From: Candidatus Zambryskiibacteriota bacterium
Lineage (GTDB): Bacteria > Patescibacteriota > Minisyncoccia > Phycocordibacterales > WO2-35-19
DNA length: 64,000 nt
Reading direction: 5' to 3'
Assembly (NCBI GenBank): GCA_048499675.1
Contig: JASNZL010000008.1
Location: forward strand, 27-64,026
Under the pieces are notes generated by a model, which searched no databases, was not told where the DNA came from, and saw only the letters and a program-made list of their open reading frames with translations. Position numbers and translations under genes: made by a program. How positions within the stretch are numbered: position 1 is the stretch's first letter; every line of letters starts with the position of its first letter. Shown here piece by piece: positions 11,982-51,539 of the stretch.

Positions 11982-12845
11982 ATGGAAGAAAATATGACAG
12001 CCAAAAAACTAGACCATGCAAGGCACGACTTAAAGCGAAGTTTGGGTCAAAATTTCTTGAAAGACCCAAAAATACTTAAAAAGATTGCCGATTTTGCCAA
12101 AATTGACAAAAAAGACACCATAATTGAAGTCGGTCCGGGAGAAGGGACACTCACAGAATTTTTGCTACAAAGAGCGGGCAAAGTTATAGTGATAGAAAAG
12201 GACGACAGAATGGTAGAATTCTTACACCACAAATTCCAACGCCAAATTTTACTGGGCAAGTTACAAATCATTTCTGGTGATGTTTTGAAAATTGAAAATT
12301 TATTAAAAATTGCAAAATTGAAAATTGAAAATTTTATTTTAATCGGTAACATCCCTTACTATATAACCGGAGCATTGTTTAGAAAAATTTTTGAATTAGA
12401 AAATTTACCAAAATCTTTAACTTTTGTAGTCCAAAAAGAAGTTGCGGACAGAATAATGACGAGGTCTGCACACCAAGGGGGAGGGGGGAGTAAAGAAAGT
12501 ATTTTGAGTATTTCGCTCAAAGTATATGGAACACCAAAATATGGAGGAGTAATCAAAGCTGGAAGTTTCTTCCCAAAACCAAAAGTTGATTCGGCAATTA
12601 TTTCAATTGAGAATATTAGTCGGAAAAATCTAAAAAGAGGAGATGAGGAAAGATTTTTTGAAATTTTAAAAGCTGGATTTGCTCACAAAAGAAAGCTGCT
12701 CATAAAAAACCTTGAAAAAATAAGCACGAAACCAAATTTAGAAAAAGTTTTTGACACATTAAAGATACCAAAAAACACAAGGGCTGAGGACTTGAAAGTA
12801 GAGAATTGGCTTCAAATAGCAAAAAAACTTACATATACGAAGTAA
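11982..12845 (+). CDS. rsmA: 16S rRNA (adenine1518/1519-N6) dimethyltransferase KsgA/RsmA, with a short in-frame low-complexity insertion (KIENLLKIAKLKIENF)
   Basis: LGQNFLKDPKIL, EVGPGEGTLT, IGNIPYYITGALF motifs. Confidence 0.9.
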   Translation: MEENMTAKKLDHARHDLKRSLGQNFLKDPKILKKIADFAKIDKKDTIIEVGPGEGTLTEFLLQRAGKVIVIEKDDRMVEFLHHKFQRQILLGKLQIISGDVLKIENLLKIAKLKIENFILIGNIPYYITGALFRKIFELENLPKSLTFVVQKEVADRIMTRSAHQGGGGSKESILSISLKVYGTPKYGGVIKAGSFFPKPKVDSAIISIENISRKNLKRGDEERFFEILKAGFAHKRKLLIKNLEKISTKPNLEKVFDTLKIPKNTRAEDLKVENWLQIAKKLTYTK

Positions 12846-13010
12846 CGAATTGGTTACGAATAGATACGAACAAGAAACGAGGTACGAAGTAGAATTAATC
12901 TAATTACACTAATTAACCTAATTATTCTAAATAATGACTAATTCTCAGTCCTAAATTTAAAATTGGGCATTGAGATTTATTTAGATTAATTAGAAATTAG
13001 AGTAATTACT

Positions 13011-13100
13011 TGTCCCGCGTAGTTTTAACGAAGTGGGACTTGTCCCGCGTAGTTTTAACGAAGTGGGACTTGTCCCGCGCAACTTCAGTGAAGTGGGAGA
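13011..13100. repeat. 3 x 30-bp perfect/near-perfect tandem repeats, each an internal hairpin (GTCCC...GGGAC), at the head of the secretion-like locus
   Basis: tgtcccgcgtagttttaacgaagtgggact repeated twice exactly, third copy tgtcccgcgcaacttcagtgaagtgggaga; no spacers. Confidence 0.8.
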
Positions 13101-13183
13101 ATAATTATTTTTGCCCACCTGTTCCCAAATCCTCTTTCACACTTTTTCTTTCTTTTAAGCTTAGTCTTGTTATAATTATTGTA

Positions 13184-14038: not shown

Positions 14039-14222
14039 TTAAGACACGACACCAATAGTAGAGTAAAAAGTTTATAAAGGTGCAAGTTATAAAGTAACAA
14101 GACACAAAATGAGGCAACGAGATACGAGTTACGATATTAGAAATCACAAAACACAGGAAACAAATTACAAATAAAATACAAAAACTCTCGAATTTAAAGT
14201 TTAAAGGGCTTAAAAAGAAAAA

Positions 14223-15362
14223 ATGAAAAGTTTTAATAAAAAAATAATTTCAATACTTCTTGTTCTAATTTTTGTTTTTTCTCCCGTTTTCGCAAACAAA
14301 GCAGAAGCTCAGTGGGTAACATGGGACCCAGGCAACTTCGTACCAAATTGGGGTAAATTTATAAAAGACTGGGGTCTAGATACTTTAGCGTGGTCAATGG
14401 TAAACCTAGTAATAGAAAGAATGGCGGCCCAAACTGTTAATTGGATAAACAGCGGATTTGATGGTTCCCCAGGATTTATTACAGACACTGGAGGATTTTT
14501 TAGAGAAACAGCAGATGGTGTAGCCGGTCAATACATTTTTGAAAACCCAAACTTAAATTTTCTTTGCGGACCGATTAGTGCGAGAATACGATTATCCTTG
14601 GCTCAAAACTATATACAAGACAACGTGAGATGGCAATGTACTGTTACAGACGTTGTGGGCAATGTAGAAAACTTTATGAACGATTTTAGTCAAGGTGGTT
14701 GGGATGGATTTTTTGAACTAACACAAAGACAACAAAACAATCCTGTGGGTGCTTATATGCAAGCCGAGAACGAACTTTTTTGGAGAATAGCTAACAAACA
14801 AGGAACTTTGGATAAAGAGCTCAATTGGGGTCAGGGGATAATGTCATTCAAAACTTGTGACAGAGAACCTCCAAAAGTGGAGGCGAGTGGTGGTGTTCCA
14901 AACGCAGACGGTTCAATCAATTACATAACAACTCCTGGTGAATGTATAAAAGGGACAGAGAAAATTTCAACCCCCGGCTCAGTAATTCAGAGCAAACTAA
15001 ATGAAAGTTTGGGGATGGGTACAAAGAGACTTGAAGTTGCAGACGAAATAAACGAGATAGTAAGTGCTCTTATGAACCAACTTACTCTTCAAGTTATAGG
15101 TGGAGTAGGAAAAGGTCTTAGAAGTTTGAGTAGTCCAAGTACCGGCTCTTCAAATACCCAGACATTTGCTCAAAGACTGGCTTCAAGCACCGCTTCATCA
15201 ACTACAGACTACTTTGGCAATCAACAAGACACCTCAGCACTTGATACGCCACGACCTGATTTGAACCAATCACCAACAGGAGGAACTTTGGTATATCCAC
15301 CGGCACCGGCACCAGAACCGGAGCCATGCAATCCAAACATTGATCCAAATTGTACACCTTAA
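14223..15362 (+). CDS. secreted Trp-rich protein with signal peptide and Pro/Cys-rich C-terminus
   Basis: MKSFNKKIISILLVLIFVFSPVFANKAEA signal; C-terminus PAPAPEPEPCNPNIDPNCTP. Confidence 0.55.
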   Translation: MKSFNKKIISILLVLIFVFSPVFANKAEAQWVTWDPGNFVPNWGKFIKDWGLDTLAWSMVNLVIERMAAQTVNWINSGFDGSPGFITDTGGFFRETADGVAGQYIFENPNLNFLCGPISARIRLSLAQNYIQDNVRWQCTVTDVVGNVENFMNDFSQGGWDGFFELTQRQQNNPVGAYMQAENELFWRIANKQGTLDKELNWGQGIMSFKTCDREPPKVEASGGVPNADGSINYITTPGECIKGTEKISTPGSVIQSKLNESLGMGTKRLEVADEINEIVSALMNQLTLQVIGGVGKGLRSLSSPSTGSSNTQTFAQRLASSTASSTTDYFGNQQDTSALDTPRPDLNQSPTGGTLVYPPAPAPEPEPCNPNIDPNCTP

Positions 15363-15375
15363 GAATATTCAATAA

Positions 15376-17733
15376 ATGACAAAGAGATTTTTAATACTGG
15401 GAATATTTTTTGTAGTTTTAGCGGGAACAATATTTTCTCCTTTAGTTTCTTATGGGCAAAATACCGATGGAGAATGTACTCCTGCTCAAGTAGCGGCTGG
15501 TGGAATAACTCGTCGACCTGGAGATTTTGTAGATGGACGCTTAACAGTTAGCACTTATTGTCAAGTTGCAGGAAGTGCCCCAGATCAAGGAGTTCTAACT
15601 GAAACAGCGAAACAAGCAATGCAAATAGCTGGAGACGGACTTTTCAAGCCACTTTTTTTACCAATAGGCCACTTCCTACTTGGTGTTTCCTCAATCATTC
15701 TCATAACAACTGGTTGGATTTTTGACGGAATTGTAAGTATGACAATTCTCAATGTTGCAGAATACATTGGTACAGGCAGTGAAATGGGCGGAGCTATATC
15801 AATGGCGTGGGGCACACTCCGAGATGTGGCGAATATGTTTTTTATATTTGTCTTGATATTTGCAGCCCTCAAGTCTATGTTTGATTTGGATTTTGGAAAC
15901 GCAAACAAGACTATAAGAAACGTAATCATTGTTGCTCTTCTAATCAACTTCAGTCTTTTCTTTTCAAAAGTTGTAATAGACGCATCAAACGTTGTCGCTT
16001 TGGGTTTTTATAAAGCTATTTCACAAGCAAATACAGCATCTTTTCAAGCATCTGGACAATTAAACACAGGAATAGGTGGTACTGCAAATTTTGAAGGAAT
16101 ATCTGGCGGATATATGAGACTGCTTGGGCTCCAAACATTTTATGGTGCGAGCATTTTAAACGGTTTAAATGTTCAAAGTGTGATTGTGGTATCCGTAATG
16201 GGCTCTATTTTTATGTTGGTTGCCTCAGTAATATTTTTGATTTCTGGAGTTATGTTTGTCGCCCGTTTTGTCATACTTATTTTCCTTATGATACTCTCGC
16301 CTCTGGCGTTTATTGCCATAGCCATCCCCGGAGGTTCTCAAATATTTGATAAATGGAAAAGCGCCCTCATTGACCAGTCATTTTTTGCTCCTCTATTTTT
16401 TGCTTTGACTTGGGTTTCGTTTAAACTTGGGTCTGCCTTAATAACCAAAATGCCAACAGGAGATACAACTTGGGTTGATATTTTTGTTTCAAATCCAGCG
16501 AAACAAAAAGGAATAGTTGTGATTCTCTTGAATTATGTTTTAGTAATCGGATTTTCAATCGCCGCTCTCGTCTTTGCAAAACAAATGGCGAGCAGAACCG
16601 CCGGATTTACCCAAATCTCCGGTGCTATTGGTTCTGGAGCAGTTGGTGGCGCCGCATTTATTGGTAGACAAACAATCGGACGAGGTGCCAATATGATTTC
16701 TGAAAACAAAAGAGAGGCTTGGTCTAAAACCACTCTTGGTAGAGCTGGTCTCTGGATGGCAGATAAAGGCAGGAGTGCAAGTTTCAACGTGGGAGGTCTT
16801 GCAGACACAAAGCTTGGTAAAATGACTGGTGCAAATAAAATACTAGATCCAAATATAATTGGCAAAACTACTGGTGTAGGTGGATTTGCAAAGGCGACAG
16901 AAGAAAAAGCAAAGAAAAAAGCTGAATATGCTAAGAGGGTATACGGACAAACAAGCGACGAAAATGAAGCTCTAAGAAGAATGGAGTTGGCTTACAAGGG
17001 AGGTTTTGATGAAAACGGCGAGCCAATAAAGGGGCTTGAGAATGAATTGAGTGAGATGAAGAGACAAGAAGAAGAGGTAATAAAAAAATCCAGAAAAGAA
17101 AATGTTGAATTAGCTCAAAAGGCCGAGGAAGAAGCTCAAACAAAGGTTGAAGAAAACAGGAGAGCATTAGAAAAAGCAAAAACATCGATGATGCCGGAGC
17201 AAATAAAAGTAGCAAAAATGAAGCTTGAAGAATCCGAAAGAGATTTAGAATTAAATAAGATAAAACACAAAGAAGCCATACAAAAACAAACTTCTAAAAT
17301 TGAGGATGATGAATTTTCTGAAGAATTAAAGACTTTGGAGAGAGAAGCAAACGAAGCAAAAATAAATATAGAAAAACAAAAAAATCTTGGTAAGGTAAGA
17401 CAACTTGAATACGCAAAAAGATTAGAAAAAACACCTCTCGTTGCAGAAGGATTGGGTGCAGCATCTGGAATATATGGTGGCGCTGCACTTGGTGCATTAT
17501 TTGGACCCTTAGGAATACTTATTGGAGGGGCGGCAGGCGCAGCAACAGGAGCGCATCTTGCTGGAAAATTGGGTAGCGGGGGCGTTGCTTGGGCAGGAAA
17601 TAAGAGTGCTTCGAGGAGTGTCCGCGCCCTTGCCGAAGGAAAAGAAAAAAAAGATAAAAAGAAACTGCAAGAAGATTTGGCTAAAGCGCTTGGAATAGAA
17701 GAGGATAAAAAAGAAGACCAACAACAAAATTAA
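15376..17733 (+). CDS. large polytopic membrane protein, VirB6/TrbL-like candidate, with a long C-terminal coiled-coil/Gly-rich extension
   Basis: signal peptide, >=7 hydrophobic helices in the central ~400 aa, charged coiled-coil tail (KRQEEEVIKKSRKENVELAQKAEEEAQTK) and GxxxG-rich end; architecture rather than motif identity. Confidence 0.45.
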   Translation: MTKRFLILGIFFVVLAGTIFSPLVSYGQNTDGECTPAQVAAGGITRRPGDFVDGRLTVSTYCQVAGSAPDQGVLTETAKQAMQIAGDGLFKPLFLPIGHFLLGVSSIILITTGWIFDGIVSMTILNVAEYIGTGSEMGGAISMAWGTLRDVANMFFIFVLIFAALKSMFDLDFGNANKTIRNVIIVALLINFSLFFSKVVIDASNVVALGFYKAISQANTASFQASGQLNTGIGGTANFEGISGGYMRLLGLQTFYGASILNGLNVQSVIVVSVMGSIFMLVASVIFLISGVMFVARFVILIFLMILSPLAFIAIAIPGGSQIFDKWKSALIDQSFFAPLFFALTWVSFKLGSALITKMPTGDTTWVDIFVSNPAKQKGIVVILLNYVLVIGFSIAALVFAKQMASRTAGFTQISGAIGSGAVGGAAFIGRQTIGRGANMISENKREAWSKTTLGRAGLWMADKGRSASFNVGGLADTKLGKMTGANKILDPNIIGKTTGVGGFAKATEEKAKKKAEYAKRVYGQTSDENEALRRMELAYKGGFDENGEPIKGLENELSEMKRQEEEVIKKSRKENVELAQKAEEEAQTKVEENRRALEKAKTSMMPEQIKVAKMKLEESERDLELNKIKHKEAIQKQTSKIEDDEFSEELKTLEREANEAKINIEKQKNLGKVRQLEYAKRLEKTPLVAEGLGAASGIYGGAALGALFGPLGILIGGAAGAATGAHLAGKLGSGGVAWAGNKSASRSVRALAEGKEKKDKKKLQEDLAKALGIEEDKKEDQQQN

Positions 17734-17743
17734 CCGAAACAAA

Positions 17744-18325
17744 ATGGATAATACAAAAGAATTATTGATACAAAAAATAGAATCTTTACCCAAAGCATAT
17801 AAAAGCTATATTTTGAGTAAGGAATGGGTTAAAAATTTATCTGAAACTTTTTTAGGTTTTACTTTTGATGAATGGCAAATAACTTCTATTGAAAATGAAG
17901 TATTTATTGTACTTGTTGGTTTAGAGCCATACACAAATCTATCAGAAAATATTTCAAAAGAAGCGGAAATTGACATAGAAACAGCAAACAAAATAGCGGT
18001 GGGTATAATAAATAAAATACTTGGACCAATAACAGAAAAATTTAGAAAAGATTTTGGTATCCCCGAAGAAACAAAACAGCCAGAAAAAACAAACCCGATA
18101 GGAAAATCATTTGAAGAAACAATATTAAACCAAGCGAGAGGGATGATGCCTGCCCGCCACGCTTCGCAAAGCGATGCGGGCGGGCCTGCCCGTCCTGCGA
18201 ACGAAGATACGAGTTACGAGATACGAGATGAGGCAAATAAAAAAATAGAGGAAAACAACAAACCAAATGTTCCATTACCTAATTATTCTGGAGGAAACGA
18301 TCCGTATAGAGAACCAATTCAATAA
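17744..18325 (+). CDS. acidic hypothetical protein carrying an in-frame GC-rich hairpin + heptamer-repeat insertion (MPARHASQSDAGGPARPANEDTSYEIRDE)
   Basis: ORF continuity through the insertion at 18149-18228. Confidence 0.5.
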   Translation: MDNTKELLIQKIESLPKAYKSYILSKEWVKNLSETFLGFTFDEWQITSIENEVFIVLVGLEPYTNLSENISKEAEIDIETANKIAVGIINKILGPITEKFRKDFGIPEETKQPEKTNPIGKSFEETILNQARGMMPARHASQSDAGGPARPANEDTSYEIRDEANKKIEENNKPNVPLPNYSGGNDPYREPIQ

Positions 18326-18454
18326 TTACCTAATTCCTAATTGCCCTAATTAATCTAAACAAATCCAAAGGCCTAATTTTAAAATTGGGAATTGTAGATT
18401 AGTCATTATTTAGAATAATTAGTATAATTAGATTAATTAGAATAATTTAACCCT

Positions 18455-18889
18455 ATGCGTTTTCAAATACCACAATTTATTGATGTAGAAGACCAAATAC
18501 TTGGCCCTTTTACTTTAAAACAGTTTATTTACATTGCAGGAGGCGCAAGCGTTGCTTTGATTTTTGTAACCCTACTTGGTGTTTTTTGGGGACTTTTAGT
18601 TTCTTCTCCAATTGTAATTCTCGCTCTAGCTCTGGCTTTTTACAAAATAAACAACAGACCGTTTATAAACACCCTCGAGTCAGCATTTAAATATATGATC
18701 AAAGACAAACTCTATATTTGGCACAAAAAAGAGCCTGAGGAAAAAGAAGCAGACTCTAGTACCGACAAAAAATTTAGCTCGCTTGTTGTGCCCAACTTAT
18801 CCCAAAGTAAACTCAAGGATATGAACTGGGAATTAGATGTGAAGAAGAAGGAAAACGAGTTACGAGATACGAGTAACGAGATACGATAA
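18455..18889 (+). CDS. small two-TM membrane protein, VirB3/PrgI-like candidate; C-terminus encoded by heptamer repeats (ENELRDTSNEIR)
   Basis: MRFQIPQFIDVEDQILGPFTLKQFIYIAGG followed by two hydrophobic helices; lies immediately upstream of the VirB4 gene, as VirB3 does. Confidence 0.5.
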   Translation: MRFQIPQFIDVEDQILGPFTLKQFIYIAGGASVALIFVTLLGVFWGLLVSSPIVILALALAFYKINNRPFINTLESAFKYMIKDKLYIWHKKEPEEKEADSSTDKKFSSLVVPNLSQSKLKDMNWELDVKKKENELRDTSNEIR

Positions 18890-19192
18890 AAAGATTTTGA
18901 AAATTTAAAATTTAATAAGAGTTAAAACTTAAAAGCGTTTTTGTTTATATAAAAAATTTTAACAGTTAACTCTTTTCATTCCTAGGGTTGTTTTAATCTT
19001 TAAATGATTAATTCAAAATAAAGAATGAATATAACTAATAACAAAGGATATAATACGGTGTATTTAAATTTTTTTATTTTATAAGTGGTGCAAATCAAAA
19101 AATAGGATTATAATCATTAATATAGATTTGGTTGTTTATTTTAAAAATTAATTCGTACTTCGTTACTCGTACCTCGTAACTCGTCCATTTTT

Positions 19193-19813
19193 ATGAAGAA
19201 TGCTACACAAAAATTTGTACCAATAGATGATGTCAGAGATGGCATTGTTATTTTGAAAGAAGGTGGAATGAGAGGGGTCCTTATGGCTTCTTCAATAAAC
19301 TTTTCTCTAAAATCAAACGACGAGAGACAAGCAATCCTGATGCAGTTTCAAGATTTTCTCAATTCTTTGGATTTTTCAATTCAAATACTTGTTCAGTCCA
19401 GAAGATTAGATATTAGACCTTATGTTGCACTGCTTGAGGGACGGCACAAAGAACAAACAAACGACCTTATGAAAATTCAGATAGAGCAATACATACAATT
19501 CGTAAAAAGCTTTACCGAGAGCACAAACATAATGACCAAAAACTTTTTTATTGTCATACCTTATGATGGGGCAATTATCTCTTCAAAAAAAGGAGTATTA
19601 TCTGGGTTTGGGAGTCAAAATAAATCAAAAGAATCACAAGAAGAAGATTTTGAAGAGAGGAAAAACCAACTTGAACAAAGAATGGCAGTGGTTGAACAGG
19701 GACTCGTCCGATGTGGAGTTAGAGTCGCAAAACTCGGAACAGACGAAGTGGTAGAATTATTTTATAAGATATTTAATCCAGGGGAGTCAGAGAAACCTAT
19801 TAAAATTTCGTAG
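19193..19813 (+). CDS. VirB4/TrbE/CagE-family ATPase, N-terminal domain only (5' fragment of a split gene)
   Basis: KFVPIDDVRDGIVILKEGGMRGVLMASSINFSLKSNDERQAILMQFQDFLNSLDFSIQILVQSRRLD and ...NFFIVIPYDG match the conserved N-domain of Gram-positive-type VirB4 proteins. Confidence 0.7.
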   Translation: MKNATQKFVPIDDVRDGIVILKEGGMRGVLMASSINFSLKSNDERQAILMQFQDFLNSLDFSIQILVQSRRLDIRPYVALLEGRHKEQTNDLMKIQIEQYIQFVKSFTESTNIMTKNFFIVIPYDGAIISSKKGVLSGFGSQNKSKESQEEDFEERKNQLEQRMAVVEQGLVRCGVRVAKLGTDEVVELFYKIFNPGESEKPIKIS

Positions 19814-19838
19814 AAATTTTAATTGTAAATAAAACAAA

Positions 19839-20258
19839 ATGAGTTACGAGTTACGAGTTACGAGTTACGAAACAAAAGAGAAAATAAACACTTTTCATGA
19901 TTTAAGAGTGTGGAAAGAAGCACATAATCTGGTTATATCAATTTATAAGACAACTAAAAATTTTCCAAAGGATGAGCTTTTTGGGTTAACTAACCAAATA
20001 AGGAGGTCTGCGGTCTCAATAACATCAAATTTAGCTGAAGGGTTTGGTAGAGAAACAATAAAGGATCGGGTACATTTTTATATTATATCCTTAGGATCAT
20101 TAAACGAAATCCAGAATCAGCTTCTCATTTCAAAAGATGTAGGATACCTAAGTTTAGAAAATTGGAGTAAGCTTGAAGAACAGATTATAATTGTAAACAA
20201 GATGCTTAATGGTTTAATAAAAAGATCCAGATCGTACTTCGTTACTCGTACCTCGTAA
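19839..20258 (+). CDS. four-helix-bundle protein of the 23S rRNA intervening-sequence protein family
   Basis: DLRVWKEAHNLVISIYKTTKNFPKDELFGLTNQIRRSAVSITSNLAEGFGR...SLGSLNEIQNQLLISKDVGYL matches the family consensus. Confidence 0.8.
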   Translation: MSYELRVTSYETKEKINTFHDLRVWKEAHNLVISIYKTTKNFPKDELFGLTNQIRRSAVSITSNLAEGFGRETIKDRVHFYIISLGSLNEIQNQLLISKDVGYLSLENWSKLEEQIIIVNKMLNGLIKRSRSYFVTRTS

Positions 20259-20265
20259 CTCGTTC
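19841..20265. mobile_element. inverted-repeat-flanked insertion splitting the VirB4 gene; carries a four-helix-bundle protein gene
   Basis: left arm GAGTTACGAGTTACGAGTTACGAGTTACGAA (19841-19873) and right arm TCGTACTTCGTTACTCGTACCTCGTAACTC (20231-20265) are near-perfect reverse complements; the arms encode the N- and C-termini of the cargo ORF. Confidence 0.55.
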
Positions 20266-20272
20266 TAAATAT

Positions 20273-22078
20273 ATGTTTGATTTTTTTAAGAAAAAAGAAA
20301 AAGAAAGTTTAACGGCTATTTCAATATTGCCGAAATCTATTACTGAAAGCTCGGAGCTAGAACTACAAGATATTTTGGCACCAAGTGCCTTAAAGGTTAA
20401 TGCAAAAGAGTTAAACCTTGGTGAAAAATTAGTTAGAAGTTTTTTTGTTATATCTTATCCTCGTTTTCTTAATGAAGATTGGTTTGCTCCGATTATAAAT
20501 ATGGATAAAATGTTTGATATTTCAATATTTATACATCCATTAGAAACGGCAAAAATATTAAGAAATTTCCAAAAAAAGGTCGCGGAGGTGCAGAGCCAAA
20601 TAAGAATGAGAGAGGAAAAAGGTTTGGTGAGAGACCCAATGCTTGATACGGCATACCAAGACCTAGAAAACCTGCGTGACGAGCTCCAGCAGGCCCAAGA
20701 AAAAATGTTTGAGGTTGGTTTATATATTTCAGTCTATGCAAACAACAGCGAAGAGTTGGACAAAGTTGGATCAGAAATAAAATCCATATTGGAATCAAAA
20801 CTTGTATACGTAAAACCAGCGCTTTTCCAACAAGAACAAGGTTTTGAGAGTATTCTTCCAATTGCAAAAGATGAGCTAAATGTACACTCAAAAATAAATT
20901 CTTCACCACTTTCAAGTATTTTCCCATTTATATCTTTTGACCTAACTTCTGACAAAGGAATACTCTATGGTATCAACAGGCACAATTCTTCTTTGATTTT
21001 GTTTGATAGATTTTCATTAGAAAACTATAACTCTATTACTTTTGCAAAATCTGGTTCTGGTAAATCATATGCCACAAAATTGGAAATAATAAGGACACTA
21101 ATGTTTGACACAGAAGTAATTGTTATTGACCCAGAAAACGAATATGAATATATGGCCGAAGCGATAGGGGGTAGGTATTTTAATATTTCTCTAAACTCCG
21201 ACCACCACATCAACCCATTTGAACTTCCTGTCCCTGGTGAAGACGAGTCCGGCGCTTCAGTTTTGAGAAGTAAGATTATAAATCTAGTGGGATTGTTTAG
21301 AATCATGATGGGCGGTCTTACAGCTGAAGAAGATGCGATTATAGACCGCGCAATCACAGAAACCTATGCCCTCAAAGATATTACTCCGGATTCTGATTTT
21401 GCAAATGTTGAACCCCCACTTCTTTCTGATTTTGAAATGGTATTGAGTGGTATGGAAGGAGGGGAATCATTGGCCCAAAGACTAACCAAGTACACAAAAG
21501 GAACTTGGTCCAACTTTATAAACAGACCTTCAAACATAGACATAAACAAAAAATTTGTCGTCTTTTCTATTAGAGATATGGAGGACGAACTCAAACCCGT
21601 TGCGATGTATATCGTGACCCACTATATCTGGAACGCTATCAGGAGAAATATCAAAAAGAGACTTCTTGTTATTGACGAAGCTTGGTGGATGATGAAATCA
21701 GAAGATACTGCGTCATTTTTGCTTTCGCTTGCAAAAAGAGGTAGGAAATATTACTTGGGACTTGCCACAATCACACAGGATGTTGATGACTTTTTGAAAT
21801 CACCTTACGGAACTCCCATAATTACAAACTCATCAATTCAAGTACTCTTGAAACAGTCACCAACTTCAATAGACAGACTTCAAGAAGTTTTCAATCTAAC
21901 AGACGAAGAAAAATATCTACTTATAGAATCTGGAGTAGGGGAAGGAATATTCTTTGCTGGTCTCAAACACGTAGCTATCAAAATAATTGCTTCTTATACA
22001 GAAGATCAAATAATCACATCTGACCCATCTCAAATTTTGGCTATGAAAAAAGCCAAAAGAGAAGCAGAACTTGAATAA
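20273..22078 (+). CDS. VirB4/TrbE/CagE-family ATPase, central + C-terminal ATPase domains (3' part of the split gene)
   Basis: FFVISYPRFLNEDWF...DISIFIHP (CagE_TrbE_VirB region), Walker A AKSGSGKSY, Walker B LLVIDEAWWMM, RGRKYYLGLATITQDVDD. Confidence 0.85.
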   Translation: MFDFFKKKEKESLTAISILPKSITESSELELQDILAPSALKVNAKELNLGEKLVRSFFVISYPRFLNEDWFAPIINMDKMFDISIFIHPLETAKILRNFQKKVAEVQSQIRMREEKGLVRDPMLDTAYQDLENLRDELQQAQEKMFEVGLYISVYANNSEELDKVGSEIKSILESKLVYVKPALFQQEQGFESILPIAKDELNVHSKINSSPLSSIFPFISFDLTSDKGILYGINRHNSSLILFDRFSLENYNSITFAKSGSGKSYATKLEIIRTLMFDTEVIVIDPENEYEYMAEAIGGRYFNISLNSDHHINPFELPVPGEDESGASVLRSKIINLVGLFRIMMGGLTAEEDAIIDRAITETYALKDITPDSDFANVEPPLLSDFEMVLSGMEGGESLAQRLTKYTKGTWSNFINRPSNIDINKKFVVFSIRDMEDELKPVAMYIVTHYIWNAIRRNIKKRLLVIDEAWWMMKSEDTASFLLSLAKRGRKYYLGLATITQDVDDFLKSPYGTPIITNSSIQVLLKQSPTSIDRLQEVFNLTDEEKYLLIESGVGEGIFFAGLKHVAIKIIASYTEDQIITSDPSQILAMKKAKREAELE

Positions 22079-22353
22079 AGAAGGGGTAGAAGCTCGTAAA
22101 ATTGAAAAAATTATTCTAATTTCTAATTAACCTAATTATCCTAAAAAAATCCTAAATTCTAAATTCTAAATTTGGAAGTTTTAAATTTTGGATTTTGAAT
22201 TTCTGATTTGCTTGCCCTGTAAAAGCTTGCTTTTATTCGAGTTTAGTATTTCGGATTTAGAATTTAGAATTTTATCGTATCTCGTACTTCGTAACTCGTA
22301 CTTCGTTTGCCTTCATATCGTGTTTTATTTTAAACTCTTGATATAATATCCTT

Positions 22354-23361: not shown

Positions 23362-23509
23362 GACAAATGAAATCTCCTCAAACCAAACCTCAAGCAACAA
23401 ATACAAGCAATGTATTAAATCTAAAAAAGGTTGCCTAAATTGTTTTCTTATCTAATTTCGTTTCCACAAAACCAAAACAAAAAAATAACTACCGTAGTAT
23501 AATTAAACT

Positions 23510-24493: not shown

Positions 24494-24496
24494 AAT

Positions 24497-25501: not shown

Positions 25502-25506
25502 TAAAC

Positions 25507-29994: not shown

Positions 29995-29997
29995 TAA

Positions 29998-41129: not shown

Positions 41130-41627
41130 ATGCAATATACATCTAAATCAGTCGAAGAGACAGAAGAAATAGCAAAGGATTTTATAAACGATTTTATTTT
41201 ACAGGAGAAAAATAGAGACAAAGCTTTTGTGGTGGGTCTCTATGGCGACTTGGGGGCAGGCAAAACAACTTTTATGAAATGTTTCGCAAAAAATTTGGGT
41301 GTAAAAGAAACTATTCAAAGCCCAACATTTGTCATAATGAAGAAATACGAGTTACGAAGTACGAGTAACGAAGAACGAGAAAAAAAGGAATCTGATTTAT
41401 CGTACCTCGTACCTCGTACTTCGTATGCCTGTTTATATCACATTGATGCTTATAGAATAGAAAAAGACGAGGAAATGTTAAAATTAGGATGGGATGAAAT
41501 AATACACAACCCGAATAATTTAGTTTTTGTAGAATGGCCGGAAATTATAAAAGATATAATGCCACCACATACTAAAATATTTTTTGAACATATAAAAGAA
41601 AACGAGAGGGAAATAAAAATAATTTAA
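41130..41627 (+). CDS. tsaE: tRNA threonylcarbamoyladenosine biosynthesis ATPase TsaE, carrying an in-frame ~80-bp palindromic insertion
   Basis: P-loop GLYGDLGAGKTTF, SPTFVIMKKY, YHIDAYRI. The segment ELRSTSNEEREKKESDLSYLVPRTSYACL is encoded by inverted TACGAG-type arms (41346-41426). Confidence 0.8.
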   Translation: MQYTSKSVEETEEIAKDFINDFILQEKNRDKAFVVGLYGDLGAGKTTFMKCFAKNLGVKETIQSPTFVIMKKYELRSTSNEEREKKESDLSYLVPRTSYACLYHIDAYRIEKDEEMLKLGWDEIIHNPNNLVFVEWPEIIKDIMPPHTKIFFEHIKENEREIKII

Positions 41628-44023
41628 TGAAAGAGAATAAATCAAATAAAAAATTAGTTTTACTTGATGCGCACGCGATTATTCATCGCGCGTACCACGC
41701 CCTGCCAGATTTTGCTACAAGCAAAGGAGAACCAACTGGGGCGTTATATGGTCTTGTGGCAATGATTTTAAAAATAGTTACCGACCTAAAACCAGATTAC
41801 ATAGTTGCTTGTTACGATTTACCAAAACCAACTTACAGACACGAAGTTTATGATGGATATAAATTAGGCAGAGCAAAGACAGATGAAAATTTGGTGATGC
41901 AACTAGAAAAATCAAAACAGATTTGTGAAATTTTAAACATACCAATTTATTCCAAAGAGGGTTTTGAGGCTGATGATATGCTTGGAACAATAGTAGAGAA
42001 ATTGAAAATTCCTGTGGATATAATTATTGCATCTGGTGACATGGATACAATGCAACTTGTAAAAGATGGAACAGGAAAAACTGGAAGTGTTAAGGTCTAT
42101 ACTCTAAAAAAAGGCATAAACGACACCATTCTGTATGATGAGAGTAAGGTAATAGAAAGATTTGGTTTTCACCCAAAATATTTAGCAGATTTCAAAGGGT
42201 TAAGGGGCGACCCGTCGGATAACATCATTGGTATTGTTGGAATTGGAGAAAAGAGTGCAACAGAACTTATAAAGAATTTTGGAACAATTGAAGAAATATA
42301 TAAACAAATCCGAAATCCAAAATCCGAAATCCGAAACAAAATAAAAGAAAGGGTTATAAAATTGTTAGAAGATGGAGAAGAGGAGGCAAAATTTAGCAAA
42401 ATGCTCGCAACAATTAGAAGAGACGCTCCGATAGATTTTGTTTTGCCAGAAACCGAATGGAAAAACGGCGTTGATTTGAATAAGGCAAAAGCGCTTTTTG
42501 CGGAATTGGAATTTAGAAATATGGGCAGTAGGCTTGAAAGTGTTTTGGGTAACGCTTCGGACGAAAGTCGCAAGGACACACAAAAACAAAACGATGATAG
42601 AGATTTGCTTGAGAAATCGCGAAGTGTCGAGGTGGAAGAGGCAAAGGTGGCGCTCTGGGTTCTTGATTCAAACAAAACGGATCCAAGTTTGGAAGATGTT
42701 TTATTTGCAGGTAAATCAGAAAACTTTGATACGGCAAAGAAAAATATCATGGATGAAATAAAAAACAGAGAAAGTGAATTTGTTTTTGAGGAAATAGAGA
42801 AACCGCTAATTCCTATAATAAAGAAAATAGGGGAACACGGAGTTTTGATAGACAAAATTTTCCTAAAAGATTTGGGAAAAAAATATTCAAAAGAGTTAGA
42901 AAAAATAGAGAAGGAAGTCTGGCAAGAAGCAGGCACTGAATTTAATGTTGCTTCACCAAAACAACTAGGAGAGATTCTTTTTGATAAACTCAATCTTTCT
43001 GTTAAAAATCAAAAAAAGACAGCCGGAGGAGCAAAATCGACAAAAGAATCAGAACTAGAAAAAATGAAGGATATGCACCCGATAATTCCACTTGTTTTGG
43101 AATACAGAGAACTTCGCAAACTCTTATCTACCTATATAGACCCAATTCCAAAGATGCTTGATAAAGACGATAGATTGCATGCAAGATTTATACAAGCTGG
43201 CACCACAACGGGCAGAATGTCCTCGGAGAACCCAAATTTACAAAACATACCGATTGGTAGTGATAGAGGGAAAGTAATAAGAAATGCTTTTATCTCACCC
43301 AAAAAAAGAAAACTGGTTGCGATGGACTATTCTCAAATAGAGCTCCGTATATCCGCCTTTCTTTCAAAAGATAAAAAACTAATTGATATTTTTAGAAATG
43401 GTAAAGATGTGCACTCTGCAGTCGCTTCTGAGGTCTTTAGGGTAAATGAATATGAAGTAACAAAAGAGATGAGAAGGCAGGCCAAAGTAATAAATTTTGG
43501 GATTTTATATGGAATGGGAGTTACTGCTCTGCAAGCAAATTTGGGAACAGATAGGAAAACAGCTCAAGAATTTTTGAACGCATATTTTGAGAAATTTGAT
43601 GGTTTAGCAAACTATCTTCATAGGTCAAAACAAGAAGCGAGTGAGCTGGGATACACAAAAACTTTTTTTGGAAGAAGGAGGTATTTTGAGGGTATAAAAT
43701 CAAAAATCCCATTTATCAGAGCAAGTGCCGAAAGGATGGCCATCAACGCTCCTATCCAAGGAACGTCAGCCGATATAATAAAAATTGCAATGAAAAAAAT
43801 TGATGATTATTTGACTCAAAATGAGAGTTCAAAAAAGGCAAATTTGATTATGCAAATTCACGACGAATTAATATATGAGGTAGACGAATCTTTTGTTTCT
43901 GACTTTTCCAAGAATGCCAAAAATATAATGGAAAATACAATAGACAAAAAAGATATATCAGATGTGCCGATAGTTGTGAATGTTTCAGTGGGTGATAATT
44001 GGGGGGAGATGGAAGGATTATAA
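41627..44023 (+). CDS. polA: DNA polymerase I (5'-3' exonuclease + polymerase domains)
   Basis: N-terminal FEN-like LVLLDAHAIIHRAYHAL; polymerase motifs DYSQIELR (A), KVINFGILYGM (B), HDEL (C). Confidence 0.9.
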   Translation: MKENKSNKKLVLLDAHAIIHRAYHALPDFATSKGEPTGALYGLVAMILKIVTDLKPDYIVACYDLPKPTYRHEVYDGYKLGRAKTDENLVMQLEKSKQICEILNIPIYSKEGFEADDMLGTIVEKLKIPVDIIIASGDMDTMQLVKDGTGKTGSVKVYTLKKGINDTILYDESKVIERFGFHPKYLADFKGLRGDPSDNIIGIVGIGEKSATELIKNFGTIEEIYKQIRNPKSEIRNKIKERVIKLLEDGEEEAKFSKMLATIRRDAPIDFVLPETEWKNGVDLNKAKALFAELEFRNMGSRLESVLGNASDESRKDTQKQNDDRDLLEKSRSVEVEEAKVALWVLDSNKTDPSLEDVLFAGKSENFDTAKKNIMDEIKNRESEFVFEEIEKPLIPIIKKIGEHGVLIDKIFLKDLGKKYSKELEKIEKEVWQEAGTEFNVASPKQLGEILFDKLNLSVKNQKKTAGGAKSTKESELEKMKDMHPIIPLVLEYRELRKLLSTYIDPIPKMLDKDDRLHARFIQAGTTTGRMSSENPNLQNIPIGSDRGKVIRNAFISPKKRKLVAMDYSQIELRISAFLSKDKKLIDIFRNGKDVHSAVASEVFRVNEYEVTKEMRRQAKVINFGILYGMGVTALQANLGTDRKTAQEFLNAYFEKFDGLANYLHRSKQEASELGYTKTFFGRRRYFEGIKSKIPFIRASAERMAINAPIQGTSADIIKIAMKKIDDYLTQNESSKKANLIMQIHDELIYEVDESFVSDFSKNAKNIMENTIDKKDISDVPIVVNVSVGDNWGEMEGL

Positions 44024-44238
44024 TTACCTAATTTCTAATTATTCTAATTAATCTAAACAATTACTAATATGGTAAAAAATACAAAATACAGTAAACAAAT
44101 TACATATAAAATACAGGAAGTAGAATAAAACCTAAAACATTTAATTTTGTATTTTATAATTTGTGATTTGTTTATAATTTTAACTTTTGATATTTTTTAG
44201 AAATTATAATAATTAGAGTACTTAGAAAAATTATACTT

Positions 44239-46540: not shown

Positions 46541-46557
46541 ATTTATACACTTTCTAA

Positions 46558-46962: not shown

Positions 46963-47062
46963 ATGATTTAAATTATTCTAATTAACCTAATTTCTAATTA
47001 ATCTAATAGGTACTTGTAAATTGGGATTTTTTTAGAATAATTAGAGTAATTATACACAATAA

Positions 47063-47590
47063 ATGAAAGTTTCAAAAGGAAAAAAGGATGTTGTTGTAAT
47101 TCTGAACAACATAAGGAGTAATGAGAATGTTGGCTCTATATTTAGGACGGCAGACGCTTTTTGTGTTTCAAAAATATATCTATGTGGTTATACACCTGCT
47201 CCGCTGGATAGGTTTGGAAGAGAGAACAAAGGTCTAACTAAAGCATCGCTTGGCGCGGAGAAGATGGTTGTTTGGGAAAAGGTTGAAGATATGAAGGAGT
47301 TGATTAAACAATTAAAAATTGAAGGATATAAAATTGTCGGGATAGAACAAGATACCAATTCGTTAAATATAGAATCTTTTAATTCTAAAATCGTAACTCA
47401 TTACTCGTTACTCGGTTTAATATTTGGCAACGAAGTAGATGGTCTTAATGAAGAGGAACTAAAACTCTGCGACTATATAGTAGAAATACCAATGAGAGGA
47501 AAATTAAAAAGAGATAGGGGAGCAAGTAAAATAAACAAAGAATCCCTAAATGTTGCCGTAACAGCAGGGATAGTATTGTCTAGTATATAA
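47063..47590 (+). CDS. SpoU/TrmH-family RNA 2'-O-methyltransferase, with a short in-frame heptamer-repeat insertion (IVTHYSLL)
   Basis: NVGSIFRTADAFCV, LIFGNEVDGL motifs; insertion at 47390-47415. Confidence 0.75.
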   Translation: MKVSKGKKDVVVILNNIRSNENVGSIFRTADAFCVSKIYLCGYTPAPLDRFGRENKGLTKASLGAEKMVVWEKVEDMKELIKQLKIEGYKIVGIEQDTNSLNIESFNSKIVTHYSLLGLIFGNEVDGLNEEELKLCDYIVEIPMRGKLKRDRGASKINKESLNVAVTAGIVLSSI

Positions 47591-47967
47591 AAGAGATTAA
47601 TTTCTTAGCATAAAATAGAAAGACATAATATTTATTTCGAAAATTTTAAATTTTAAATTCTAAACATAATTTTAAAAATACCAAATTACAGTATCCAAAT
47701 TACAAACAATACACAAATAACAAAATCTAAAATTTAAAGATTTAGGATTTAAGAGTTTGTTTCCCCCTTCGCTAAAGCTTCGGCGGGACAAGTCGGATTT
47801 CGGATTTAGGATTTAGAATTTTAGTTAAGCTTTTATACGATTTGTGAGTAGCTTTATAAACTTTTTACCTTCAAACTTTCTAACTAATATATTCGTGTTA
47901 TTCGTGTGCATTCGCCCGCCTGCAACGTGTATGCGATAGCATTGCGGGCAGGTATATTGGTGTCGCG

Positions 47968-49106: not shown

Positions 49107-49973
49107 CTAACTATACTTTATTTGGTGTATGGGACAGAAGTGAGAACTACGTCCTTTTATCACCATTCTCTCTATTATACCCGAGCATCCGTTTTTTGGA
49201 CACTCTGCCCCTTTTTTGCCATAAACCTTGTGAAAATTTTGAAAACCACCTTTTTTGCCAAAAGCATTGCGATAATCTGATTTAGAATCGCCTCCATGCT
49301 TAATTGAAAGTTTTAATATTGTTAGCATAGCTTTAAATATTTCTATAAATTTATTTTCTGGAATTTTTTCACTCTTTGACGCGGGGTGTATACTAGTTTG
49401 CCAAAGTATTTCATCTGAATAAATATTACCAATTCCAGCAATGGTGTTTTGGTCAAGTAGACTTGATTTAATTGGCCAATTTTTCTTTCTATGAATCAGC
49501 TCAAAAAGTTTTTTTGAATTTAATTTTGGATGGAAAGGGTCAATACCGAGTTTTCCGAGTGTTTCGTGCAAATGATTTTGATCCGTTTTTGAAATAATGA
49601 CAGAAGCAAATTTTCTCAAATCTGAAAGTAGTAAATAGTGATTATTTGAAAGTGTGAAAATGAGGTGAATATATTTTTCATCAGAGAAATCTTTTTTATA
49701 CATAAGGCACCCTGTCATTTTCATATGCACCACGATTGTATGGTCAGTGCTTAAATTTATTAAAATATTTTTACCTCTTCTTTCTACACTTTTAATTTTT
49801 GAACCCTTAGTAATTTTTCGGAACTTATCAAAATATTTTTTGTTCTTTATGTTTTGTCGATTGTTATATTTTGAACCAATATAAAAATCCGACCAGACAT
49901 CCTTAATTGTCTTGCCAATAACGACACTTTTCAAACCTTCTACGGTTGTATGTACTTCGGGTAATTCAGGCAT
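49107..49973 (-). CDS. mutM: formamidopyrimidine-DNA glycosylase (Fpg/MutM/Nei family)
   Basis: N-terminal MPELPEVHTTV (catalytic Pro2/Glu3), H2TH, C-terminal zinc finger CPKNGC...CPIHQ. Confidence 0.9.
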   Translation of the reverse strand: MPELPEVHTTVEGLKSVVIGKTIKDVWSDFYIGSKYNNRQNIKNKKYFDKFRKITKGSKIKSVERRGKNILINLSTDHTIVVHMKMTGCLMYKKDFSDEKYIHLIFTLSNNHYLLLSDLRKFASVIISKTDQNHLHETLGKLGIDPFHPKLNSKKLFELIHRKKNWPIKSSLLDQNTIAGIGNIYSDEILWQTSIHPASKSEKIPENKFIEIFKAMLTILKLSIKHGGDSKSDYRNAFGKKGGFQNFHKVYGKKGAECPKNGCSGIIERMVIKGRSSHFCPIHQIKYS

Positions 49974-50038
49974 GGAATAGTTTAGAGCTTACAGCTTTTA
50001 GCTTAGAGTGTAAACAAACCAAAAATTTCTCAAAACTT

Positions 50039-51337
50039 TTAGCTATTACCTAAAACCTTCTTTAGTTCTTCACGAGCAACATACGCATCGTCCCAAGGAG
50101 TTTTTTTACCGTTGGCTTCCATAATATAAGGGTCAGTGCCTTTACCTGTAATCAAAACAGCAACTCTGTTTTGGTTATCCCGCGAAGCTCCATTTTTTGG
50201 AGCGAAGCGAAACGCCTTCAGAATCGCGGTCCGAATCGCAGTTCGTCTATCCATTATAATTTCTGTCGGTTTGTTTTTTATACCTTTTTTTATATCATCC
50301 ACGATTTTTACAGGGTCTTCATCATACGGGTCTTCATTGGTTAAAATAATTTGTTCACAATATTTGTCTGCAAGTCGTCCCATCTCAGGTCTTTTCCATG
50401 TGTCTCTACCGCCCCCAGTATTTCCCAAAATACAAATTGTTTTGTGTGTTTTATAGGTTTCGTATACTGCTTTGAGTGAGTCGGGTGTGTGAGCATAATC
50501 AACAACAACATCAAAATTTTGTCCTATATCTACTTTTTCCATTCTGCCTCTTATAAACTGCATATTTTCCAAACCTTTCTTAATTATCTCGTCCTGTATT
50601 CCAAAAAATCTTGCACAAGCTATTGCGCCAAGCATATTTGAAACGTTAAATATTCCTGGGAGTTTGGAATGAATCACAACTTTGCCTATCTGAAAAACAG
50701 AACCTTTTTCATCTGCTTTGACAGCGGTTGCGTCTTTGAGAGAGTAGGGGATTTTGTGGTCTGCAGAAACCTCTAAAAACTTTTCTCCTTCTTTATCGTC
50801 TATGTTTGCAATTATGCAAGTATCCCCTTTGACTTTTTTTGTTAACTCGCGTGCAATATTTAATTTGGCTTCTCTATAATTTTCGTAAGAACCATGAGAT
50901 TCGATGTGTTCCTTTGCAAGATTTGTAAATATAAGAGCGTTTGGGTATATAAATCTGTGCCTGAATTGTTTTGATCCTTCACTTGTCATTTCCATAACAA
51001 CATGAGTACAACCCGCATCTAAACTTCTCTTTAGAAAATTTTGTAAGAAAAATCTCCCCGGCATTGTCATTTTAAAAAGGTTTCTTTCTTCTTTTTCGCC
51101 AATTTTAAAACGAAGTGTGCTTGCGAGAGCGGTTTTGTATCCAGCTTCCTCAAAAATCGCATTTACTATTTCTGTTGTTGTTGTTTTGCCTTTTGTACCG
51201 GTTATACCAATTACAACCATTTTTTTAGAAGGGAAACCAAATTTAATTGCTCCAAGAAGTGCAAGTAAAAAGTGGTAGCTAGGCTGAAAAAAACTAAATA
51301 TCTTTTTTGGTATTATTTTTTTTAAAATGTTAAGCAT
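50039..51337 (-). CDS. Mur ligase family enzyme (MurE-like UDP-MurNAc-tripeptide synthetase)
   Basis: P-loop GITGTKGKTTTTEIV, DYAHTPDSL. Confidence 0.7.
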   Translation of the reverse strand: MLNILKKIIPKKIFSFFQPSYHFLLALLGAIKFGFPSKKMVVIGITGTKGKTTTTEIVNAIFEEAGYKTALASTLRFKIGEKEERNLFKMTMPGRFFLQNFLKRSLDAGCTHVVMEMTSEGSKQFRHRFIYPNALIFTNLAKEHIESHGSYENYREAKLNIARELTKKVKGDTCIIANIDDKEGEKFLEVSADHKIPYSLKDATAVKADEKGSVFQIGKVVIHSKLPGIFNVSNMLGAIACARFFGIQDEIIKKGLENMQFIRGRMEKVDIGQNFDVVVDYAHTPDSLKAVYETYKTHKTICILGNTGGGRDTWKRPEMGRLADKYCEQIILTNEDPYDEDPVKIVDDIKKGIKNKPTEIIMDRRTAIRTAILKAFRFAPKNGASRDNQNRVAVLITGKGTDPYIMEANGKKTPWDDAYVAREELKKVLGNS

Positions 51338-51539
51338 ATTTAAATTTAAAATGTAAATATAAAAATTAAAAATGACAATTTAAAATGGAAAATATTTAAA
51401 CCCTAAATTATACTTTTTTGCTATTTTATATTCTTGCCTGTGACTTTTCATTTTGACTTTTAAATTTATAATTTAATCGTACCTCGTACCTCGCCTTCTC
51501 AATTAGTGTCATTCGTTTTCATTTGTAATTTGTGTCGTG

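Follow-up and report, generated by a model that had tools for sequence, protein, structure and literature searches.

In Coxiella burnetii, the 23S rRNA gene carries an intervening sequence (IVS) of 428 nt that holds an S23p open reading frame (ORF) between terminal inverted repeats forming a 28-bp stem, which RNase III cuts near its middle (PMC4990558). Three to four tandem GACAGAT heptamers stand just upstream of the ATG, their copy number varies among strains, and the S23p ORF, which seems not to be translated, is in decay (PMC4990558). The Xanthomonas S23p protein is a homopentamer in the crystal structure cited in PMC4990558. Genes of this S23p/IVP family have also been described inside insertions in 16S and 23S rRNA genes of the candidate phyla radiation (CPR) (10.1101/2024.02.27.582315) and within cas operons (PMC3936711). 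Here we analyzed a stretch of 64,000 nucleotides (hereafter the window) from contig JASNZL010000008.1 of assembly GCA_048499675.1, Candidatus Zambryskiibacteriota bacterium. The host is a low-GC CPR/Patescibacteria (Paceibacteria-like) genome, whose TsaE has homologues named Zambryskibacteria, Paceibacterota, and Patescibacteria, and the window contains dispersed tandem arrays of the heptamer TACGAGN. These arrays are probably the terminal arms of selfish IVS-type (S23p/IVP) cassettes, here residing in CPR protein operons.

A second literature concerns heptameric simple sequence repeats (SSRs), which are over-represented in many bacterial genomes according to Mrazek 2007, as cited in PMC4692102. 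This excess has no settled explanation (PMC4692102), and the literature on heptameric SSRs includes the proposal that polymerase slippage favors 7-nt units. The Xanthomonas genome contains about 185 GGGAATC arrays, mostly of four units, with 70-75 in convergent inverted pairs (PMC4692102). In the open-access literature, we found no paper linking IVP genes generally with inverted heptamer arms or describing such elements in CPR. New here are IVS-like cassettes outside of rRNA with translated hairpin derivatives, the link between IVP genes and heptamers, and the insertions in coding sequence.

We searched the window for TACGAGNTACGAGNTACGAG with up to 3 mismatches and drew the expectation from 100 dinucleotide-preserving shuffles of the window, which gave 25 matches versus 0.02 expected. 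Chaining ACGA/TCGT at period 7, combined with direct reading of the sequence, delimited 13 (TACGAGN)n arrays. Seven are on the plus strand (12836-12889, which is degenerate, 14114, 18206, 18852, 19838, 39874, and 41344) and six on the minus strand (19150, 20229, 22272, 41397, 47390, and 51477). Period 7 is the sole strongly enriched tandem period in the window: it accounts for 13 arrays versus 0.1 in composition-matched shuffles, with three arrays at period 9, one at period 6, and none at the remaining periods from 4 to 12. Eight of the 13 arrays fall in a 10-kb locus resembling a type IV secretion system (T4SS). An Rfam scan of the window at the gathering threshold returned a tmRNA and three tRNAs only, with no match at the arrays and no rRNA.

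Three pairs of arrays face each other, namely 18855/19153 (32 nt, 91% complementary), 19838/20232 (33 nt, 85%), and 41353/41396 (30 nt, 83%). Mismatches in these stems recur about every seventh position, which is the variable base of the heptamer, and arrays outside the facing pairs are solo arms. The initial annotation, which had proposed a dispersed family on both strands, with facing pairs and above chance expectation, is borne out in these respects, and each array site it listed is present in the window. Its array list calls for some caution: the array at 12836-12889 is irregular, that at 51477 is just 2.4 units long, and the one in trmH is weak. It had further described facing pairs around genes; in fact, facing arms in the window bracket only an IVP gene and an ORF-less spacer, and no host gene. 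Assembly artefact was ruled out by an independent Logan contig with an identical tsaE, hairpin included, and by two JGI contigs of a sister genome (L122 and L123) that have most of the window's arrays.

The only complete cassette spans 19838-20266, between a TraC/TrsD-like gene and a VirB4-like gene. Its cargo is a 139-aa four-helix bundle encoded on the plus strand at 19839-20258, which matched PF05635 (23S_rRNA_IVP; E 2.3e-38, 131 bits against a cut-off of 33.8) and TIGR02436 (E 4e-36, 123 bits against a cut-off of 24). The left arm, (GAGTTAC)x4.3 at 19838-19873 on the plus strand, holds the start codon at 19839, with its repeats beginning 2 nt past the ATG, and is identical in L122. The right arm, five units at 20229-20266 on the minus strand, holds the stop codon, and its end lies 7 nt short of the ATG (20273) of the VirB4-like gene. 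Left and right arms pair in the RNA fold: 19838-19870 and 20232-20264 form the terminal stem in both the minimum free energy and centroid folds of the 443-nt region. The arms encode the first 11 and last 10 residues of the protein and lie outside the Pfam domain (residues 21-125). Arrays in frame at both ends of this ORF had been anticipated, and they are there, but the ORF had been taken for an ordinary host gene, which its match to the IVP family contradicts.

A profile of the window IVP with its relatives matched PDB 2gsc, the Xanthomonas S23p structure, and 2rld, each with 5 chains. Among 670 IVP homologues, many have YELR.../...SYFVTRTS ends; MSYELRVTSYE, MNYELR, and MNYES are frequent N-termini, and SRSYFVTRTS, IIHNS, and VIRNS are frequent C-termini. 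End peptides such as MSYELRVTSYE... and ...SYFVTRTS imply that the terminal codons are mutually reverse-complementary. We also considered and rejected the idea that the cassette splits a VirB4 gene, as the 206-aa upstream ORF, along its whole length, matches a TrsD/TraC-like family that is free-standing, and the VirB4 N-terminal region is already part of the 601-aa ORF.

About 1 kb away, a second two-armed element (18852-19187) has no ORF. Its left arm (five units, 18852-18889, plus strand) codes for the last nine codons and the stop of a PrgI-like ORF at 18455-18889, and its right arm (five units, 19150-19187, minus strand) ends 5 nt before the TraC/TrsD-like ATG at 19193. The in-frame array that the initial annotation placed in the C-terminal extension of ORF 18455 is this left arm. 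In orthologues of PrgI, the C-terminal extension is missing where the arm is missing, and the ends differ. The AT-rich, 260-nt interior (18890-19149) forms a loop with structure of its own, which a 33-bp terminal stem closes (z = -7.8 for the region); neither the IVP gene of L122 nor any of the loci retrieved shows similarity to it. The minus-strand arms of the two elements, 19153-19184 and 20232-20263, are identical across exactly 32 nt and have differing flanks.

The third facing pair is a minimal hairpin at 41344-41427 within tsaE, composed of a five-unit plus arm (41344-41381), a 15-nt loop, and a four-unit minus arm (41397-41427). It folds as a 90-nt hairpin (-32.4 kcal/mol, z = -5.7) and is translated as about residues 75-100 of TsaE. 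This insert of 26 residues stands where solved TsaE structures (PDB 9zw5 and 5np9) have 3-4 residues. In an AlphaFold model (mean predicted local distance difference test, pLDDT, of 86), the insert lies between strands 70-74 and 101-106. Mean pLDDT in successive 10-residue blocks over 61-100 was 74, 72, 52, and 67, compared with 85-96 elsewhere. Hence, the surface-loop check suggested for the in-frame tsaE insertion came out in its favor: the solved structures and the model place an in-frame insert at the protein surface in a conserved gene. The same site in TsaE orthologues holds differing inserts or none, and the DNA of these inserts comprises an (AATCCAG)5/(ATTCCAG)3 hairpin, a 2+2-unit GAATCCA hairpin, and a GCGCAAG-type hairpin. 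In the sister tsaE (L123, 7260-7280), an extra in-frame mini-hairpin of 21 nt, CTTGTCTGTCGAAAAGACAGG, stands directly 5' of the plus arm and resembles a nested insertion.

IVP genes in general carry heptamer arms. Scanning metagenome contigs by alignment yielded 80 IVP loci, and 78 of them were evaluated for inverted repeats. An arm pair was called when the best ungapped 5'/3' inverted repeat scored more than 3 units above every one of 20 shuffled versions of the 3' flank. Such repeats flanked 60 of the 78 loci, usually with 4-5 units in each arm, and arms averaged 31 nt in length over the 69 pairs scoring at least 14. Units varied widely and included GAATTAT, GTATTAT, GATTAAG, GAGTTAA, GTAGCTA, CAGCCGT, and others. 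Self-identity of IVP flanks was 0.41 at lag 7 and 0.36 at lag 14, versus a background of 0.28 and 0.30 for the flanks of other genes at the same loci. Where a tandem period was detectable, it was 7 in 85 of 93 IVP flanks, with a median of 4.1-4.4 units.

The same anatomy extends to finished plasmids of cultured bacteria, where matches to IVP were mostly in Nostocales. Tandem heptamers occurred in a flank of seven of the eight plasmid IVP genes examined; in six, those of Trichormus variabilis, Nostoc punctiforme, Azospirillum lipoferum, Riemerella anatipestifer, Picosynechococcus, and Geminocystis, they form an inverted pair. The Picosynechococcus cassette sits between cmr2 and cmr3. On A. lipoferum plasmid AZO_p2 (L216, 14380-14745), an unannotated IVP ORF with GGACAGA/GGACGGA inverted heptamer repeats, a unit close to the GACAGAT of Coxiella, may lie within a plasmid-borne 23S rRNA gene. 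A Pseudanabaena plasmid (L215) has (TAAAAGC)n upstream and (CCAAAAG)n downstream of its IVP gene, in the same orientation, between cas6 and cas4. Viral contigs provided just two IVP loci: L208 with an inverted heptamer pair, and L207 with (TTAGCTN)5 upstream of the gene and (AACTCAT)5 downstream.

Arm sequence tracked the IVP protein. IVP identity was correlated with arm similarity (Spearman -0.44), with none of 300 permutations as extreme. Heptamers differed by 0.56 nt in pairs of IVPs at least 70% identical, compared with 4.2 nt in pairs less than 40% identical. Moreover, the arm family of an IVP gene was 7 times commoner elsewhere in its own locus (14 occurrences in 199 kb) than in other loci (112 in 11.1 Mb). 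Judging from these sequence comparisons, arm and protein are inherited together.

We next compared the window with syntenic contigs from relatives, comprising L122 and L123 from the sister genome (genes 82-93% identical in nucleotides) and the more distant L204-L206. Arrays 14114, 18206, and 47390, the tsaE hairpin, and the IVP cassette are common to the window and the sister contigs, with differing units. The 12836 array is a 47-nt indel absent from L122, and the 39874 and 51477 arrays are absent from L123, where the spacers are unrelated. Three adjacent junctions in the T4SS-like operon show rapid turnover. At the junction from TraC to VirB4, the IVP cassette is present in the window, L122, and L205; L206 has a TAGCAGC-type hairpin, and L204 is empty (TAA CT ATG). 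The junction from ORF 17744 to PrgI holds a hairpin of 9-mers in the window and an IVP cassette in L204 and L206. From PrgI to TraC, the TACGAG arms and 260-nt interior of the window correspond to a 117-aa IVP gene with 9-mer arms in L122 and to a GAATAAN hairpin in L204; L206 has just a short TAGCAGC-type array there. Cassettes directly adjoin the stop and start codons of neighboring genes, and the IVP gene occupies one of three junctions depending on the contig. An empty-site comparison had been proposed as a check, and it found occupied, empty, and replaced sites among relatives. Thus, the repeat peptides are not ancestral low-complexity coding sequence. The operon itself (14223-26766) is T4SS- or conjugation-like and encodes a DUF4141 protein, a large membrane protein, PrgI, a TrsD/TraC-like protein, a VirB4/TraG P-loop protein, and a T4SS pilin.

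Solo arms occupy both spacers and genes. In spacers, a three-unit array on the plus strand (14114-14137), also present in L122, stands 86 nt upstream of the gene (14223) that opens the T4SS-like operon. A five-unit right arm on the minus strand (22272-22309) lies downstream of the VirB4-like gene, and the L122 counterpart of this spacer keeps both a plus and a minus arm around a variable interior of about 260 nt. A three-unit plus array (39874-39897) is in the divergent spacer between a PilB-like ATPase gene and ORF 40262, and the short minus array of 2.4 units (51477-51495) is between ruvA and a Mur-ligase gene. The degenerate plus array (12836-12889) overlaps the stop codon of rsmA/ksgA (11982-12845).

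Among coding copies, the three-unit array at 18206-18229 (plus strand) keeps the frame of ORF 17744-18325, as claimed, and encodes DTSYEIRD. Orthologues of this ORF just 28-32% identical have an array at the same codons, which in L206 is a perfect (GTACGAG)x4. The weak minus array of 3.4 units at 47390-47414, within a SpoU/TrmH gene, is more regular in L123. Its supposed insertion into trmH did not survive comparison with solved structures PDB 1zjr and 2ha8, to which it aligns without gaps and hence without any insertion of length. Similarly, an (AAATCCG)x4.4 array in polA (42306-42336) encodes KQIRNPKSEIRNK, and its counterpart in L123 is non-repetitive DNA of equal length encoding KKLRTSNSELREK. 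This heptamer array thus appeared in place without a change in length, and the equal lengths at trmH and polA imply that some arrays arise or are overwritten in place.

A mechanism modeled on rRNA IVSs would accommodate this range of forms. In a complete cassette, the IVP gene stands between a left arm of 4-5 heptamers and a right arm in which 4-5 heptamers are inverted, and the arms overlap its start and stop codons. The window holds one complete cassette, one ORF-less two-armed element, one minimal hairpin in tsaE, and solo arms. By analogy with the IVSs of Coxiella, Leptospira, and Salmonella, transcribed arms would pair into an imperfect double-stranded RNA stem of about 33 bp to be cut by RNase III. 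In an operon, this cut would release the cassette RNA and part the cistrons on either side; the predicted 33-bp stems are consistent with excision that is not followed by religation. Inside tsaE, the mRNA would be cut or destabilized unless translation held the stem open. Bare hairpins and solo arms would then be decay products in a cycle of gain, decay, and loss, with copies lasting only where they are harmless, such as gene junctions, gene ends, and surface loops. As to how cassettes move and what IVP contributes, we infer that spread might depend on recognition of the heptamer array, most plausibly by a pentameric IVP.

Several observations weigh against treating the arrays as cassette arms, including some that rival explanations draw upon. 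No target-site duplication was found at inspected junctions when the empty L204 site (TAA CT ATG) was compared with occupied ones. Neither the scanned window ORFs nor the inspected junctions revealed a recombinase, transposase, HUH protein, or reverse transcriptase. The arrays flanking IVP in L207 and L215 are not complementary to each other. The correlation between IVP identity and arm similarity, and the enrichment of arm families in their own loci, are partly confounded by host relatedness and base composition. Arm mismatches comprised 46 of G-U type, 70 of A-C type, and 229 others; with no excess of G-U on the sense strand, arm pairing is not visibly selected at the level of sense RNA, and we do not invoke such selection on the stem.

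Physical linkage of arrays to IVP genes is likewise inconstant. We searched for TACGAGN arrays elsewhere using one genome per species and found at least 120 loci, which among the matches listed represented Chloroflexota, Bacteroidota, Gemmatimonadota, Planctomycetota, Acidobacteriota, Omnitrophota, Patescibacteria, and Gammaproteobacteria. None of the 120 arrays listed from other phyla has an IVP gene within 8 kb. Most arrays are therefore not physically linked to an IVP gene, and the idea of constant linkage was dropped. Among the matches listed, 87 arrays were evaluable; 21 of these had a partner in inverted orientation no more than 700 nt away, and most such pairs were short hairpins without an ORF.

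It could be argued that the arrays are host cis-regulatory sites, such as operators or RNA-processing signals, possibly bound by IVP and kept by selection in the T4SS-like operon and a few other genes. The concentration of arrays in the T4SS-like locus fits this explanation, as does the presence of the same IVP clade (at least 65% identical to the window IVP) in that operon in all four related contigs examined (L122 and L204-L206), which is a further point against mobile cassettes. The array of ORF 17744 keeps its place in proteins about 30% identical, a constancy suggestive of function or continual homogenization rather than neutral decay. Furthermore, hairpins occur in the TsaE loop of many lineages, and arms adjoin the stop and start codons of neighbors. 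However, close relatives differ in which junction is occupied, in arm family, and in cargo, and one junction is empty, unlike what would be expected of a conserved regulatory site. IVP cassettes of the same anatomy also occur in unrelated contexts, including cas operons, plasmid genes, and rRNA (PMC3936711), and the Coxiella S23p ORF is in decay (PMC4990558). On balance, we consider a regulatory role unlikely; the conservation in ORF 17744, the tie between IVP clade and operon, and the two loci with non-complementary arrays keep it alive.

The arrays could instead be ordinary SSRs generated by slippage in place, immobile and unrelated to IVP, with their pairing and coding positions incidental. 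This would agree with the heptameric SSR excess reported for many bacteria (Mrazek 2007, as cited in PMC4692102), with the occurrence of TACGAGN arrays in very many phyla, some as long perfect runs, and with the variation in unit number and sequence between sister contigs at fixed sites. The lack of IVP genes within 8 kb of the 120 listed arrays points the same way. So do the arrays in trmH and polA, which replace coding DNA of the same length and look like products of slippage or conversion rather than insertion. Yet slippage does not account for the inverted arrays of a single family that enclose 60 of 78 IVP genes, for the agreement between arm sequence and IVP phylogeny, for the exact 32 nt shared by two minus arms within differing flanks, or for junctions where close relatives have a whole array, lack it, or have one of another family instead. 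We therefore judge slippage alone to be quite improbable. Finally, the view of the initial annotation, that these are autonomous palindromes resembling Rickettsia palindromic elements (RPEs) and inserting in frame, with the four-helix-bundle gene a chance host neighbor, is very unlikely: in-frame copies in the TsaE surface loop, the PrgI C-terminus, and ORF 17744, together with the two orientations, are compatible with it, but the flanked gene is the defining IVS cargo and is heptamer-armed across phyla, facing pairs bracket no other gene in the window, tandem heptamers differ from the 100-150-bp RPE consensus, and the trmH copy is not an insertion.

The TACGAG arrays are accompanied by sister families of repeats, as several arm families of 7-mers and 9-mers coexist in this one genome. 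A hairpin with tandem 9-mer arms (AATTANNCT / AGNNTAATT) occupies 12893-13008 (z = -7.0 for the fold of 12890-13010). Other 9-mer hairpins are at 18323-18447, 44033-44233, and 46971-47052, with a solo 9-mer arm at 22109-22144. Arms of this 9-mer family also flank the second, highly divergent IVP gene of L122 (8928-9281, 117 aa), which is 27% identical to the window IVP over 52 residues. A further hairpin at 22146-22273 has AAATTCT / AAATCCG heptamer arms (z = -4.3), and related arrays include those at 39904-40010 and 47641-47821 as well as the in-frame polA array (42306-42336).

GC-rich hairpins (CCCGC...GCGGG) make up a separate family, with copies at 18150-18195, 40046-40085, and 47914-47950, and at 16806-16853 of L123. 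The copy in ORF 17744 is translated in frame (HASQSDAGGPARP), and it is present in L122 and absent from the orthologues in L204 and L206. The copy at 47914 recurs in L123 at another genomic position. We also observed pairs of near-identical, self-palindromic, terminator-like hairpins (e.g., CAAAAAAACAGCAGATGCTGTTTTTTTG) flanking single genes or short regions, at 52528-52557/54025-54054, 46281/46513, 1063/1274, and 56816/57078. At 13008-13079, a perfect 30-nt tandem repeat of 2.4 copies, ACTTGTCCCGCGTAGTTTTAACGAAGTGGG, forms the N-terminus of ORF 13010 (MSRVVLTKWDLSRVVLTKWDLSR), and the sister contig L122 has a single diverged copy.

Elsewhere in the window, the region 28651-31416 holds dnaA-dnaN, identified from its synteny with L122, and after it an (AAATTTA)x10 array (31348-31416); rnpA and yidC are upstream, and the replication origin is probably inside the window. 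GC content climbs from about 0.33 to 0.44-0.52 over 56000-64000 and 1-2000. Genes in the last 8 kb encode a chorismate mutase-methyltransferase fusion, a GNAT acetyltransferase, an AstE/AspA-like protein, and a class-I W/Y tRNA synthetase (62465-63577) that is the second one besides that at 33934-35331. This GC-rich part may be a foreign island or an assembly join.

Interpreting the arrays as arms of IVS-type cassettes would join three things that have been described separately: rRNA IVSs with the orphan S23p/IVP gene, the excess of heptamer repeats, and palindromic inserts in essential genes. If arrays are the arms or debris of IVP cassettes, then the function of a very large four-helix-bundle family becomes directly testable. 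For annotation, it would account for odd peptides rich in Tyr, Glu, Leu, Arg, Thr, and Ser in protein loops and at gene ends of CPR. The comparison of relatives also shows that small, streamlined CPR genomes tolerate fast turnover of selfish hairpins at operon junctions. A bolder and doubtful extension is that the S23p/IVP pentamer might be the specific partner of the heptamer array, with its ring reading 4-5 units, or about one arm. Such an IVP-array system would resemble that of repetitive extragenic palindromes (REPs) and their REP-associated tyrosine transposases (RAYTs), could overwrite coding DNA in frame, and might explain much of the bacterial heptamer excess, from the short tandemly repeated repetitive sequences (STRRs) of Nostocales to GGGAATC in Xanthomonas and the arrays of CPR. 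The first description of STRR heptamers came from Nostocales. The comparison of heptamer arrays with the IVP arms of their own genome covered a few Nostocales plasmid genes.

Among known systems, MITEs (miniature transposable elements with inverted repeats) and REPs, their bacterial interspersed mosaic elements (BIMEs), and RAYTs resemble the window in having many short non-coding inverted repeats and, for REP-RAYT, rarer copies bracketing a protein gene. Unlike these systems, the window has no target-site duplication at the inspected junctions, and its arms are tandem rather than a unique terminal sequence. IVP, a four-helix bundle with no known nuclease or transposase fold, is the sole cargo, and no transposase was found among the scanned ORFs. 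The Avd protein of diversity-generating retroelements shares a fold superfamily with IVP, with weak matches to PF22296 and to NF033474, the latter scoring 24.9 bits, far below its cut-off of 80. Avd is a pentamer and binds nucleic acid. A reading as CRISPR or as a diversity-generating retroelement was rejected, since we found no Cas proteins and, among the scanned window ORFs, neither a reverse transcriptase nor a pair of template and variable repeats.

RPEs are similar to the window elements in being short palindromic DNA borne in frame in conserved genes and translated as a surface insert. They have a consensus of 100-150 bp, and to our knowledge they have no associated ORF and are restricted to Rickettsia. 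From this general description they are set apart from heptamer arrays with an ORF-bearing copy. The likeness to RPEs drawn in the initial annotation therefore holds for tolerance of in-frame insertion, by analogy only, and not for kinship, as the closest known relative is the rRNA IVS. Heptameric SSRs (GGGAATC in Xanthomonas, Nostoc repeats, and cyanobacterial STRRs) come nearer: they have 7-nt units in about four copies, are mostly intergenic, and form inverted pairs, and their positions are kept between related genomes while lengths vary (PMC4692102). The arrays of the window belong to this class by their 7-nt tandem units, their number above expectation, their mainly intergenic placement, and their inverted pairs. 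The published SSRs differ in having been read as G-quadruplex or slippage features, with no link to IVP (PMC4692102).

The nearest relatives are the 23S rRNA IVSs of Coxiella burnetii, Leptospira, and Brucella, which share with the window a PF05635 ORF within terminal inverted repeats and a stem of about 28-33 bp (PMC4990558). In both, heptamers of variable copy number are located in the 5' arm by the ATG (just before it in Coxiella), versions with and without an ORF occur, and the spread is patchy, as expected of a selfish element. In contrast to these IVSs, the elements of the window lie between or inside protein genes rather than in helix 25 or 45 of 23S rRNA, their minimal hairpins are translated in frame, and arm families of 7-mers and 9-mers occur together.

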